From an uncultured Mycoplasmatota bacterium (GTDB lineage Bacteria > Bacillota_I > Bacilli_A > RF39 > UBA660): DNA of 64,000 bases. Under the pieces are notes generated by a model. The model made no database searches. It was not told the origin of the DNA and worked only from the letters and a program-made list of their open reading frames with translations. Location: assembly GCA_948434005.1 (NCBI GenBank), contig CAOJEH010000001.1, forward strand, positions 155,880 through 219,879, in the 5' to 3' direction. Made by a program: the position numbers and the translations under genes. Positions 4,208-60,020 of this stretch are shown here, in pieces (the stretch's first letter is position 1; the number at the start of each line of letters is the position of its first letter).

Positions 4208-5221
<1,014 letters not shown>

Positions 5222-12625: not shown

Positions 12626-12702
12626 GCCTCAATAGCTCAGTTGGTTAGAGCACTTGACTGTTAATCAAGGGGTCCTAGGTTCAAGTCCTAGTTGAGGCGC
12701 CA
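12626..12702 (+). tRNA. tRNA-Asn (anticodon GTT)
   Basis: Cloverleaf: acceptor GCCTCAA/TTGAGGC, D-loop AGCTCAGTTGGTTAGAGC, anticodon stem cttga/tcaag with loop ctGTTaa, T-arm GGTTCAAGTCC, 3' CCA encoded. Confidence 0.9.
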
Positions 12703-30661: not shown

Positions 30662-30699
30662 TATACTAAATACAATATTTTAAATATTGGTAGTAGTAG

Positions 30700-30875
30700 T
30701 AATATTAATTTCTATTTAAGAGAGTTTACGCATGGTGTGAGTAAATATAGAATTAATATGAACTTGATTACCTATAAGTATTTTGGGTAAGACCGTTATC
30801 TCTATTAAGTGCATAGAAATATGAATTAAGGTGGTACCGCGATTTAATCGTCCTTATTTAAGGGCGTTTTTTTAT
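30700..30875 (+). promoter_or_regulatory. T-box riboswitch leader of the leuS operon
   Basis: AGAGAG and GGTGTGAGTA (stem I / AGUA box), F-box-like CCGTTA at 30793, T-box AATTAAGGTGGTACCGCG at 30824-30841, and terminator cgtccttatttaagggcg+T7 at 30849-30873. Confidence 0.8.
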
Positions 30876-47375: not shown

Positions 47376-47454
47376 TACTCTTTTCATTTTAGTAATATTA
47401 TGATATATTTATAATATAATTTTCAGTGATTAATTATAAGTAGTATTTTTAAAT

Positions 47455-47625
47455 ACTTTTAGAGACTTAGTGGTTGGTGCAAACTAAGATACTTAAAAAT
47501 ATGAAATACAGATTATGAGAAAAATCGTTTATCGCGTTAAGATATTAGAGGTAGCATAAGCTATAAATTAAGGTGGTACCACGAACTATTCGTCCTTATG
47601 ATAGGGATGAATAGTTTTTATTTTA
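47455..47625 (+). promoter_or_regulatory. T-box riboswitch leader of the CYTH-tyrS operon
   Basis: AGAGAC near 47463, F-box-like CGTTA near 47534, T-box AATTAAGGTGGTACCACG at 47566-47583, and a terminator (12-bp stem aactattcgtcc/gggatgaatagtt + T-run) at 47583-47625. Confidence 0.75.
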
Positions 47626-55158: not shown

Positions 55159-55794
55159 ATGGAGATTAACGGATTACCAAAAGATTTGAAAACATGGGCT
55201 ATTTACCATAATGCAATAAAGTTTGGAAAAAGAAATTCTCATGAACAAATATTTACAGAACTTATATTAAAATATTATATAGAATTAAAAGAAAACATCC
55301 CTGTAAAATTCATTGCTTTTTCAGAACAGTACTTTCCAAAATATCTTTGGAGAAATCCTAATTTTGCTAACCCTAAAGAAATGTTGATTTTGGAATGTAA
55401 TCTTAATAGCTTTATCTTTACAAAAAAGCACGAGTATGAAATGGATATTTCAGACGAAGATTTAAATAAGGCTTTTGAATTTGGAGAAATTGCTACCAGA
55501 TTCTGTATACAATATTTAGGTTATAGCCTTATTGGATATTGTGGAGGTAAAGCTATTGTAACAGCCCAAGATCAATGCGATAAAAAATTTGATTATTTTT
55601 TAAGTAAGGGAGAAGAATATTGGTTACATAGAATACCAAAAGTGTATTATGTTCCAAGCAAATATGATCTTTATGGATATTTTAAAGAACTTCCAGTATT
55701 ACCAACAAATAACTTATACTATGGAAATGATGAATATATACAAAGTACTAATCATAGTTTCCAAAAAGTTCTAAAAAATAGAAATTCTATTTAA
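55159..55794 (+). CDS. Hypothetical protein
   Basis: 211-aa ORF. No recognisable motif. Confidence 0.4.
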   Translation: MEINGLPKDLKTWAIYHNAIKFGKRNSHEQIFTELILKYYIELKENIPVKFIAFSEQYFPKYLWRNPNFANPKEMLILECNLNSFIFTKKHEYEMDISDEDLNKAFEFGEIATRFCIQYLGYSLIGYCGGKAIVTAQDQCDKKFDYFLSKGEEYWLHRIPKVYYVPSKYDLYGYFKELPVLPTNNLYYGNDEYIQSTNHSFQKVLKNRNSI

Positions 55795-57325: not shown

Positions 57326-57336
57326 TGTTAGCTTAA

Positions 57337-57370
57337 AAGATAGACTGTAATATGTCTATCTTTTGTTTTG
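57337..57370 (+). terminator. Rho-independent terminator after the SASP gene
   Basis: aagatagac/gtctatctt stem followed by ttgtttt. Confidence 0.65.
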
Positions 57371-57443
57371 ACACATAATTATAAATATGCTATGATATGT
57401 AGTAATTTTTTAATATATTTATAAAGAAAAAAGAGTTGTTATT

Positions 57444-58283
57444 ATGGATAAATGCTTTGAAATATTTAAGGAAAATGAATTAAACTATAGAGAAAAAGAA
57501 GAGGAAATGTATAAAAAAGTTTATTATGACTTTTCTAAAGTAAGTGAAAAAGAATATAATATTGGTGATTGGAGCTATCAAGAAGCAATATTCAATCTTA
57601 AATCTCTTATATATGGCTATAACTCACATGAAATTGATAAATTTTTTGATATATTAAAAAAATATAATTATGATATGCGATGGGAAATATCTGATGCTAT
57701 TTTTAATTTAGGATATCAAAAAAATTCAACAGATATGTTAAAAACTATTAATAGTTGGTTAAATTCTCCTGTAATAGATTATATTGGTTTTGATGGAGAT
57801 AGTAAGCTTGAAATAGGCAGTGATGAATATGGTACTTTTCCATTTATGCAAGCTTCTAAATATTTAGATAGAGAAGATATAACAGATTATATATGGGAAA
57901 ATAGAACTAAAAATATATGCCATTCACATGCCTATAATATTGCTAGGGTATATCCAGATTGGTATACTATAACATCCAAAATATCAGATAGGATTATAGG
58001 TACATACTATCACTCATATACTTATGATAAAGAAAATGATATTGTTATTGACTTACGATCAAATTGTGCTATGTATATGGAAATATTTGAAAGACTACAT
58101 GATACTACTTGTGTATCACAAATTCTAAATAGTCAATTAAATAAAGAAATTGAAATTACAAATAAAAAAATAGATTTACAAGAAGTAAAAGCTAAAGTAT
58201 TAAGGGTAGCACTTTATAAAGAATATTTAAATAGCATTGGGTATATTGGTCCTATAGAAAAGGGTCCTTCATTAAGAAAGTAG
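57444..58283 (+). CDS. Hypothetical protein, tandem paralog 1 (possible papain/transglutaminase-like Cys-His-Asp fold)
   Basis: MDKCFEIFKE..., NICHSHAYN, YYHSYTYD, DLR. C-terminal tail LRVALYKEYLNSIGYIGPIEKGPSL. Confidence 0.5.
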   Translation: MDKCFEIFKENELNYREKEEEMYKKVYYDFSKVSEKEYNIGDWSYQEAIFNLKSLIYGYNSHEIDKFFDILKKYNYDMRWEISDAIFNLGYQKNSTDMLKTINSWLNSPVIDYIGFDGDSKLEIGSDEYGTFPFMQASKYLDREDITDYIWENRTKNICHSHAYNIARVYPDWYTITSKISDRIIGTYYHSYTYDKENDIVIDLRSNCAMYMEIFERLHDTTCVSQILNSQLNKEIEITNKKIDLQEVKAKVLRVALYKEYLNSIGYIGPIEKGPSLRK

Positions 58284-58340
58284 ATTTATCAGTTATAAAA
58301 TATTTAACTTATACATAAATTAAAAGATGGGATGGAGAGT

Positions 58341-59195
58341 ATGGATAAATGTTGGGAAATCTTTAAGGAAAAAGAGCTAAAAAGTATTAAAAAAGAAGAA
58401 AAAATGTATAAAACTGTTTATAAAGAATTTTGTAAAACAAGTAATCCAAAATATAGATTTAACTATTTTTCTTCATATAACACAGTAGTTGCTATGCTTG
58501 AAAATTGTTTGTATGAATCACAAAGAAAAGAAGAGATAGATCTACTTTTTAACATACTAAAAAAATATAACTATCGTATGCAGTGGGAAATTTGTTATGC
58601 AATTCAGGGATTAGCATTTTTAGAAGATCCTAATAATAATACCGAAAAAATTAAATTTTATTTAAATTCCCCCACAATAGATGATATTAGTTTTAATGGA
58701 ATAGATGCATTTGAAATATTCAGTGAAGAATGCGGAAAGTTCACATTTCAATTAGCAGATAAATATTTAAATGATAGAGATATAGGAAACTATATTAAAA
58801 AAAATAGATATAATGGTATGTGTCATGAGCATACCTATAATATGGCTCAATGGTATCCAAATTATTATGCTATAACGTCTTTAGTAGAAAATAGATTTTT
58901 AGGAAGTTTTCATCACTCAAATACTTATGATAGCGATAGGAATGTCATTATAGATTTACGCTTTAATTCAGTAATGGATAAAGAAGCATCTGATAATTTG
59001 TATCATTCTCAGTGCGTATCAAAAACATTAAATAGTGAGCTTAATAGTGAGATTGATATTGTAAATCAAAAAATAAAATTAAAAAAAGTAAAGGCTGAAG
59101 TATTAAGAGTAGCACTTTACAAAGAATACTTAAATAGTATTGGATATACTGGGCCTATAGAAAAAGGACCCTCACTAAAAAAATCAATTTATTAA
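58341..59195 (+). CDS. Hypothetical protein, tandem paralog 2
   Basis: MDKCWEIFKE..., GMCHEHTYN, FHHSNTYD, DLR, and a C-terminal tail identical to paralog 1 for about 24 aa. ATG at 58341 chosen to parallel paralog 1; the track start is at 58332. Confidence 0.5.
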   Translation: MDKCWEIFKEKELKSIKKEEKMYKTVYKEFCKTSNPKYRFNYFSSYNTVVAMLENCLYESQRKEEIDLLFNILKKYNYRMQWEICYAIQGLAFLEDPNNNTEKIKFYLNSPTIDDISFNGIDAFEIFSEECGKFTFQLADKYLNDRDIGNYIKKNRYNGMCHEHTYNMAQWYPNYYAITSLVENRFLGSFHHSNTYDSDRNVIIDLRFNSVMDKEASDNLYHSQCVSKTLNSELNSEIDIVNQKIKLKKVKAEVLRVALYKEYLNSIGYTGPIEKGPSLKKSIY

Positions 59196-59312
59196 TTATA
59201 AAATATTTAACTAATCATAAATTAAAAACTACAATAATTAACAAAAAAGTCAATGTAAAAATAATTGTATTGATTATATAACTTTGATAAAGTAAAGGAA
59301 GTGTAATGAATA

Positions 59313-60020
59313 ATGGAAACACTAAGAGAAAGTTTTCAGAGTTTGCAATCTTGCTATATGTTTTTGGAATGTAATCCAAATGATACAGAAACTACCATAA
59401 GGGAAAACTTTTACTATAAAATAAGCGAGGGATATAGAGAAACTATGGCATGTCCTGATTGGCATCATCTATACTATGATTATGCAAGTAATGGTGATTC
59501 AGATGAAAAAATGAAGCTAGATTATTACCGTGAATTACAATTAATTCATCAGGACATAGAATTATTATGTGCTTCATATTTAGCAATTATCTTATCAAGA
59601 AAAGATCCAGAACAATATAAAAACTTTATTAAAGGATTAGTTAAAATGTGGTATCACGGGTATCCTAGTCAATTTTTAAATGATACTGAATTCAATCCTT
59701 ATTTTGCACTTAGATTTCCAAGAGAAGATGAAAATATAGAAATGTTAGAACCTGACTATATAACCAAAGAAGAATATTTAAAAAGAATAGATCATTATTA
59801 CCACGAACTGCATTATCATGGTTATGGTTGCGTGCCAACACTTGGAATAATAATAGAATTAGAAAAGGAAATAATGGATAAAAATATGGTAATTAAAAGA
59901 TATATGAAACGACAATACCCTCTTGGGAGAATTAAAGTAAAGAATGAGCAGGCTATAAAATTAGAGAGAATAGAACAAAATAAAACAGAAGGAAGACATA
60001 TACAAAAACGCAAAGTATAG
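59313..60020 (+). CDS. Hypothetical protein (His/Tyr/Cys-rich)
   Basis: 235-aa ORF. No recognisable motif. Confidence 0.4.
   Translation: METLRESFQSLQSCYMFLECNPNDTETTIRENFYYKISEGYRETMACPDWHHLYYDYASNGDSDEKMKLDYYRELQLIHQDIELLCASYLAIILSRKDPEQYKNFIKGLVKMWYHGYPSQFLNDTEFNPYFALRFPREDENIEMLEPDYITKEEYLKRIDHYYHELHYHGYGCVPTLGIIIELEKEIMDKNMVIKRYMKRQYPLGRIKVKNEQAIKLERIEQNKTEGRHIQKRKV

Follow-up and report, generated by a model that had tools for sequence, protein, structure and literature searches.

A tandem gene pair in an uncultured Mycoplasmatota bacterium encodes putative thiol enzymes with a strongly conserved C-terminal tail

The stretch of DNA analyzed here, referred to as the window, comprises 64,000 nucleotides (about 25% G+C) of an uncultured Mycoplasmatota bacterium (GenBank assembly GCA_948434005.1, contig CAOJEH010000001.1, positions 155,880 to 219,879 of the forward strand). 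It contains two neighboring genes on the same strand, A and B, whose products belong to a protein family from uncultured low-GC gut Bacilli that has no annotation in curated databases. Paralogue A occupies positions 57444..58283 (+) and encodes 279 residues (ORF list; ORF, open reading frame); paralogue B occupies 58341..59195 (+) and encodes 284 residues from the ATG at 58341. The B ORF also opens at 58332, giving 287 residues, but the start is probably 58341, because all homologues begin with MDxC... (MDKC... in B, at 58341) and the protein in the public gene call, P0004, has 284 residues. The exact protein of A (P0001) is found on 24 public contigs. An earlier reading made from the letters of the DNA (hereafter the sequence-only reading) recognized the two genes as tandem paralogues, which they are, and estimated their identity at 45-50%, which is slightly low: BLASTP gives 51% over the full length (143/281, E 8e-96). 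The gene upstream of A encodes, as that reading also stated, a small acid-soluble spore protein (SASP) of the alpha/beta type (Pfam PF00269, E 2.6e-19). At 90% identity this SASP clusters with Candidatus Onthousia (Bacilli incertae sedis), which makes a related uncultured gut bacterium the probable source of the DNA. A stops three codons before B and the orthologues, which end in ...KKSIY (window 58281-58292 versus 59184-59195); its TAG aligns with the TCA Ser codon of B, and the former frame is still recognizable beyond it.

A and B go back to an old tandem duplication of a single gene. The nearest relative of A is P0002 (66% identity) and the nearest relatives of B are P0005 (76%) and P0006 (73%), while A and B are 52% identical in the same alignment. 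Gene content between the SASP gene and ackA is variable. In the window this slot holds A, B and an orphan gene of 235 residues; at locus L009 it holds a single copy intermediate between A and B (P0003), and at L023 and L024 a single B-like copy. An A-like copy and an orphan gene of 242 residues lie upstream of ackA at L006, a short contig whose start is the end of another, non-SASP ORF. The slot can thus contain one copy, one copy and an orphan, or two copies and an orphan. The pattern of closest relatives and the differing copy content together indicate that the gene was duplicated before these species diverged and that copies were then lost differentially. A tandem pair independent of A and B, 39% identical overall, is found in an unrelated uncultured Bacilli metagenome-assembled genome (MAG; L019, 5041-5937 and 5953-6840). 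Just upstream of that pair, at about 4889-4965, is a tRNA-gene-like sequence, judged by eye only.

The family to which A and B belong is sizable. A word-indexed search returned 15 relatives, and a hidden Markov model (HMM) scan of 1.84 billion cluster representatives, each standing for a cluster at 50% identity, returned 333 at E ≤ 1e-3 and 62 at E ≤ 1e-30, nearly all of them 260-300 residues long; a large-alignment search added just two proteins (P0197 and P0165). The carriers among GTDB representatives are uncultured Bacilli, Erysipelotrichales, “Clostridium sp. CAG:417” and MAGs labeled Mycoplasmatota or Tenericutes, with about 24-31% G+C, and the few family members that have a name are called “hypothetical protein” or “unknown”. 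Neither A nor B has a match in Pfam, NCBIfam, PHROGs or PADLOC. A Pfam scan of 140 members at E ≤ 10 gave no family that recurs at a meaningful E-value, the scattered marginal matches including YtxK_like (7 members) and DUF5700 (4 members). Searching PDB sequences with profiles built from 15, 140 and, for the core only, 43 sequences gave no relative, and tblastn found no phage or plasmid relative. P0062 (408 residues) has an N-terminal extension of about 190 residues that includes a hydrophobic stretch and is joined to the family region, from position 62 on; it is the only clear domain fusion seen in the family.

The most striking similarity between the paralogues lies at their C-termini. The tail of A (residues 249-277, 58188..58274, +, KAKVLRVALYKEYLNSIGYIGPIEKGPSL) and the tail of B (residues 251-279, 59091..59177, +, KAEVLRVALYKEYLNSIGYTGPIEKGPSL) encode the same residue at 27 of the 29 aligned codons before the final K/R, the two differences being K/E and I/T. 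In a codon alignment analyzed by the Nei-Gojobori method, these last 29 shared codons show 11 synonymous differences (proportion of synonymous differences, pS, 0.55) and 2 non-synonymous ones (pN 0.03), compared with a pN of 0.32 and a pS of 0.47 for the body. Relative to the body, the tail is depleted of non-synonymous changes at a highly significant level (Fisher p = 1e-8), and the two regions show no difference in synonymous divergence (Fisher p = 0.81). Because pN is far below that of the body while pS matches it, the codons point to purifying selection on the tail, much stronger than on the body, and because the synonymous sites of the tail are as diverged as those elsewhere, they argue against recent gene conversion. 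The sequence-only reading had drawn both conclusions from the silent differences and is borne out. It had further described the body as diversifying, which does not hold: divergence there is ordinary, with dN/dS <1 and conservation of the putative catalytic positions. Within residues 31-60 of A (57534-57623), which cover a loop and helix 2 of the N-terminal domain, pN (0.53) exceeds pS (0.28) in the comparison with B, on too few sites for significance; this region is the most variable one across the family.

Strong conservation of the tail extends beyond A and B. The subfamily consensus is [LI]ALYKEYLxxIGYxGxLExxPxL, and G[YF]xGx[LIF][EKR]xxP after [LI]ALYK[EQ]YL is present in 17 of 140 family representatives, which have about 35-40% overall identity to A. 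In these 17 tail carriers, conservation along the protein peaks at residues 251-270 (mean column identity 0.72-0.78, versus 0.30-0.69 elsewhere), and the same contrast recurs in the L019 tandem pair, whose tails are about 72% identical. In other members of the family just the helix of the tail (LLxxAL) persists. The AlphaFold2 model of A predicts the tail to be ordered, with a predicted local distance difference test score (pLDDT) of 90-97, and to consist of a helix and a packed segment, so a packed structural element fits better than a free signal peptide. We therefore regard the tail as probably a subfamily-wide structural element and not a detachable signal.

The model of A, built from a 15-sequence alignment, has a mean pLDDT of 93.1 and a predicted template modeling score (pTM) of 0.89. 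It shows five N-terminal helices (residues 3-105), an alpha/beta domain (113-228) and two C-terminal helices (229-242 and 251-264) that precede the ordered terminal segment; a second AlphaFold2 model, of a family member 24% identical to A, has the same topology. Secondary structure was assigned with DSSP on these two predicted structures. The 140-sequence alignment has a mean column identity of 19%, and the only positions conserved at 90% or more are the start Met, C159 (96%), H160 (95%), H190 (99%) and D203 (99%). The sequence-only reading had listed C-H-x-H, HHS.TYD and DLR motifs; all are present in the pair, and C159, H160, H190 and D203 are the only motif residues with at least 95% conservation across the family. 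Cys159, the proposed nucleophile, is the first residue of helix 159-169 (Cys159-His160 codons, 57918..57923, +). His190, the proposed general base, is located in strand 187-195 (codon 58011..58013, +), and Asp203, the proposed third residue of the triad, ends strand 200-203 (codon 58050..58052, +). The full C-H-H-D set is retained in 127 of the 140 representatives, and retention at this level in an alignment of such low mean identity is the pattern of an active site.

In papain and transglutaminases an aromatic residue comes right after the nucleophile, and the signature of the superfamily is a nucleophile at a helix N-terminus with this aromatic residue, then a His and an Asp on consecutive strands. 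The conserved triad of the superfamily is Cys-His-Asp/Asn/Glu, in that order, and its members include proteases, transglutaminases, phytochelatin synthases and N-acetyltransferases (PMC4866520). In the 140 representatives Cys (96%), His (99%) and Asp (99%) follow in this order, and in both predicted structures the Cys is at a helix N-terminus and the His and Asp on adjacent strands, 31 residues separating Cys from His and 13 His from Asp in A. The replacements seen at these positions are informative as well: Ser takes the place of Cys in 4 of the 140, 3 of which retain His190 and Asp203, and Tyr or Phe takes the place of H160 in 5 of its 7 exceptions, in line with the aromatic residue at this position in papain and transglutaminases. 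The Cys-His-Asp set is the most conserved feature of the family and occupies the expected secondary-structure elements, in agreement with the earlier suggestion of a papain/transglutaminase-like core.

Fold comparisons lean the same way. In a Foldseek search of the PDB with model 1, about 21 of the top 50 matches were papain-like Cys peptidases, among them USP28/47, the 9l5u toxin, AvrPphB, staphopain, MOA and IdeC. For model 2, that of the 24%-identical member, the top PDB match was the Salmonella protease GtgE, with USP14/47 and VASH1 also listed. Matches in BFVD at a probability of 0.93-0.97 were small phage proteins, and another, at 0.47, was named COG3672 transglutaminase-like Cys proteinase. 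On the strength of the conserved Cys-His-Asp, its placement on secondary structure, the replacements, the spacing and the direction of these weak fold matches, we consider a papain/transglutaminase-like fold a probable and well-motivated assignment, as distinct from demonstrated membership. Several points weigh against it. None of the Foldseek matches is significant (best PDB E-value 0.36-0.55, template modeling scores ≤0.25); sequence and profile searches of Pfam, NCBIfam and the PDB gave no tie to any cysteine-peptidase clan; and Cys, His, His and Asp are typical metal ligands as well. The role proposed for the tail is drawn from pLDDT and conservation.

The arrangement upstream of A suggests how the pair is expressed. 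The SASP gene is followed by a hairpin and T-run (57334..57365, +; -15.6 kcal/mol, z-score -5.0), likely an intrinsic terminator, which the consensus terminator scan missed and which is kept, with substitutions in the stem, in L009 and L023. It directly abuts the -35 hexamer of a promoter-like site of the sigma-70/sigma-A type (57368..57396, +; TTGACA-17-TATGAT, the -10 hexamer being preceded by TG), which lies 48 nt upstream of A and is the best match in the region (11/12 positions). Both hexamers are kept upstream of the orthologues in L009 and L023, as is the abutting arrangement, which is thereby common to three species. Neither a terminator scan nor RNA folding found a terminator-like structure between A and B or after B. 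Because a likely terminator and a promoter-like site precede A and no terminator-like structure separates A from B, the two genes are probably co-transcribed apart from the SASP gene. Adjacency to a SASP gene is limited to the lineage of the window, L009 and L023/24, and is absent in L005, L010 and L014-L022.

An AT-rich element of conserved sequence (TTATAAAATATTTAACTWAT..CATAAATTAAAA, 32-33 nt) follows both genes, at 58293..58325 (+) after A and, in a second copy directly after the stop codon of B, at 59196..59227 (+). It accounts for the likeness of the two downstream intergenic regions that had been pointed out in the sequence-only reading. The copies are about 90% identical although the synonymous sites of the genes are saturated, and the element is also found after the A-like orthologue in L006 (984-1016). 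TTATAAAATATTTAACTWAT occurs exactly twice in the 64 kb, at 58293 and 59196 (0.2 expected), and the 20-nt core of the element occurs at those two sites only. RNA folding predicted no structure for the element and no Rfam family was found in the region. Together with a slight excess of tail similarity within the genome, described below, this element is the part of the data that our explanation leaves over.

That explanation, to which as a whole we give a probability of about 0.6, is that A and B are old duplicates encoding putative thiol enzymes with a structural tail, co-transcribed separately from the SASP gene. Each protein would combine an N-terminal helical domain with a C-terminal alpha/beta domain, in which Cys159, His190 and Asp203 may form a papain/transglutaminase-like triad. 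A and B would then act as thiol-dependent hydrolases or transferases (a protease, an amidase or an enzyme of the acyl- or transglutaminase type) on an intracellular substrate, to which the variable N-terminal domain plausibly adds specificity. The tail would comprise an amphipathic helix ([LI]ALYKEYL) and, packed on the enzyme, an extended but ordered segment (IGYxGxLExxPxL). The strong purifying selection on it may reflect a requirement for the tail in folding, in giving the region of the active site its shape or a gate, or in self-association. Transcription of both genes would probably start from a housekeeping-type promoter, independent of the upstream SASP gene.

The main alternative is that Cys159, His160, His190 and Asp203 constitute a Zn or Fe site, making the family metalloenzymes or metal-stabilized scaffolds. 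All four near-invariant residues are classic metal ligands, and a His is found at the +3 position of CHxH in 51 of the 140 representatives. The Pfam entry DUF5700, a “putative zinc dependent peptidase”, is the weak match of four members mentioned above (best E 4.7e-4), and Fe/Mn superoxide dismutases are among the weak Foldseek matches. However, there are few DUF5700 matches, which a correction for 140 queries makes marginal, and the superoxide dismutase alignments have a root-mean-square deviation of 17-19 Å. The replacement of H160 by Tyr/Phe in 5 representatives and of Cys by Ser in 4 would be tolerated by a nucleophile/aromatic pair and poorly by a metal site, and the placement of the residues at a helix N-terminus and on two adjacent strands is papain-like. 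We consider a metal site unlikely on balance.

Also improbable is a reading in which the family forms an enzyme class of its own, intracellular and of the Cys-His-Asp type, in gut Bacilli with reduced genomes. The conserved C-terminal peptide (IGYxGxLExxPxL) would then be a functional module, either a pseudosubstrate or autoinhibitory tail or a latch for homo- or hetero-oligomerization, and the AT-rich 3' element a regulatory site dedicated to these genes. Such a module would account for the nearly identical tails of the two paralogues in one genome, a parallel Leu-to-Ile change included, alongside recognition domains that diverge.

The sequence-only reading had favored a different role for the tail, as a peptide that serves docking, secretion or the binding of a partner and is carried by a diversifying body, in the manner of polymorphic effector/immunity or spore-associated families. 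Several observations speak for it: conservation is far higher in the tail than in the body, the genes adjoin a SASP gene, and pN is above pS at residues 31-60. Furthermore, the tails within the genome are 93% identical and only 78% identical to those of the nearest orthologues, the reverse of what is seen for the bodies, and differences between the A and B tails are nominally fewer than ortholog rates predict (binomial p about 0.002-0.04). Parsimony on the aligned tails, however, needs no more than a single strictly parallel change, from Leu to Ile at residue 270, to account for this likeness. Co-evolution of the two tails with a shared partner is possible, and the case for it is weak because parsimony requires only that one change.

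The remaining evidence makes a docking or secretion role improbable. Neither protein has a signal peptide or membrane segment (maximum Kyte-Doolittle 19-residue mean 0.58), and the family proteins are probably soluble and cytoplasmic. They have no defense, phage or plasmid association in PADLOC, PHROG or tblastn searches, and an all-against-all BLAST of ORFs found no neighbor conserved across 14 loci. The flanking genes vary (Fic, NT5C, XRE-type helix-turn-helix (HTH) at three loci, GDSL lipase, deaminase, IS200), and the family gene often stands alone between opposite-strand genes. No tail on an unrelated body was seen in the family HMM scan, the 140-sequence alignment or a tblastn search of the window, the last of which also found no further tail copy in the 64 kb; the short “tail-only” proteins in databases are contig-end fragments. 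A search with a 44-residue profile of the tail alone returned one contig-end fragment and missed known members, and is thus uninformative on tails elsewhere. The tail is predicted to be ordered, and dN/dS in the body is below 1. As to a link with spores, the adjacency to SASP genes is confined to one lineage, where the terminator and sigma-A-like promoter stand between, and elsewhere the family is far from SASP genes.

That the family is non-catalytic (a regulator, an adaptor or a pseudoenzyme), the conserved residues being structural or ligand-binding, would agree with the lack of detectable homology to characterized enzymes, with the nearby XRE-type HTH genes, and with some members in which the Cys or the His is missing (Ser and Gln in P0016). 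We find this quite improbable, given that 127 of 140 representatives keep the C-H-H-D set at a mean column identity of 19% and that the HTH adjacency is limited to 3 of 14 loci. Least probable is that the tails owe their near-identity to an old A-B gene-conversion tract, blurred by synonymous drift, and not to extra constraint: B does have the A-like Val254, Pro269 and Ile270 where P0005 and P0006 have Ile, Ser and Leu, with the same codons in A and B, and the two copies of the 3' flank just past the tail are about 90% identical, but the tail pS of 0.55 is not below that of A or B versus their orthologues (0.51, 0.54) or that of the body (0.47), conversion after the split of B and P0005 (body pS 0.28) predicts at most about 0.28 (p about 0.01 for a difference at 11 or more of 20 sites), and conservation of the tail extends to other species and to genomes with only one copy, where there can be no conversion. 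Gene conversion as the main cause of tail identity was rejected on tail pS.

Some further features of the window touch neither gene. The 235-residue ORF after B (59313-60020, +) has no Pfam, NCBIfam, PHROG or PADLOC match; the 242-residue gene after the A-like orthologue in L006 is 81% identical to it, and L009 and L023/24 have no counterpart. This ORF and a 245-residue ORF after the CAG:417 homologue were considered as a shared partner of the family and rejected, as the two are unrelated. Another ORF, of 211 residues, lies between ezrA and thiI (55159-55794, +) without a library match, kept at its position in L009 and missing in L023. Two T-box leaders (30683-30858 and 47417-47600, +) score above the Rfam gathering scores, and a tRNA-Asn(GTT) gene is found at 12626-12702 (+).

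The pattern of tandem paralogues is in itself ordinary gene-family evolution, and the family has no bearing on a long-standing open question. What the locus brings to light is a new family, or a variant, within a known mechanistic kind: the family is probably a papain/transglutaminase-like thiol enzyme, and the tail, as modeled, a lineage-typical and structurally integrated motif. If the assignment holds, it describes a family of predicted thiol enzymes, comprising 333 clusters at 50% identity and annotated in no curated database, that is confined to uncultured low-GC gut Bacilli, small-genome lineages among them, and is set apart by its helical N-domain and by the conserved motif at its C-terminus. 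It would give a name to proteins so far called “hypothetical”, along with a testable active site (C159, H190, D203) and, in the tail, an accessory element that can be tested too.

Polymorphic toxin systems are built of a conserved module common to unrelated variable domains, with secretion or immunity partner genes alongside. A and B resemble toxin/immunity systems of this type in being tandem paralogues with a strongly conserved segment and a more divergent remainder. They differ in that the conserved segment is always on the same catalytic-looking body, and in having no secretion signal, partner gene or match to a defense model.

YabG protease (Peptidase_U57) and the spore-coat transglutaminase Tgl are sporulation-linked cysteine enzymes of Firmicutes, of about 245-290 residues. 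The family shares with them its size, a Firmicutes host and, by prediction, cysteine chemistry, and in this window also a neighboring spore-protein gene. Unlike YabG and Tgl, it has no Pfam match to Peptidase_U57 or TGL, its predicted promoter here is of the sigma-A and not of a sporulation type, and it also occurs in loci and genomes without SASP linkage, including MAGs labeled Mycoplasmatota or Tenericutes.

The closest comparison is with the papain/transglutaminase superfamily, whose Pfam clan, Peptidase_CA, comprises Transglut_core, BTLCP/LapG, the vasohibins, Ntaq1, arylamine N-acetyltransferases, YopT/AvrPphB and GtgE. The family differs from this superfamily in that sequence, profile and Foldseek comparisons match none of its members significantly, in an N-terminal five-helix domain of about 105 residues and a C-terminal tail that have no recognized counterpart, in a strong preference for His directly after the Cys, and in its restriction to uncultured gut Bacilli; thiol activity is here only predicted. 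On the other hand, members of the superfamily dominate its weak fold matches, and vasohibins and Ntaq1 are cytoplasmic, single-domain proteins with helical additions, as the family proteins are predicted to be. The predicted structures have the same Cys, His, Asp order, with a Cys at the start of a helix, an aromatic residue or His directly after it, and with His and Asp on consecutive antiparallel strands. The spacings in the family (31 residues from Cys to His and 13 from His to Asp) are likewise similar to those of VASH1, which are 35 and 17 (PMC4866520).

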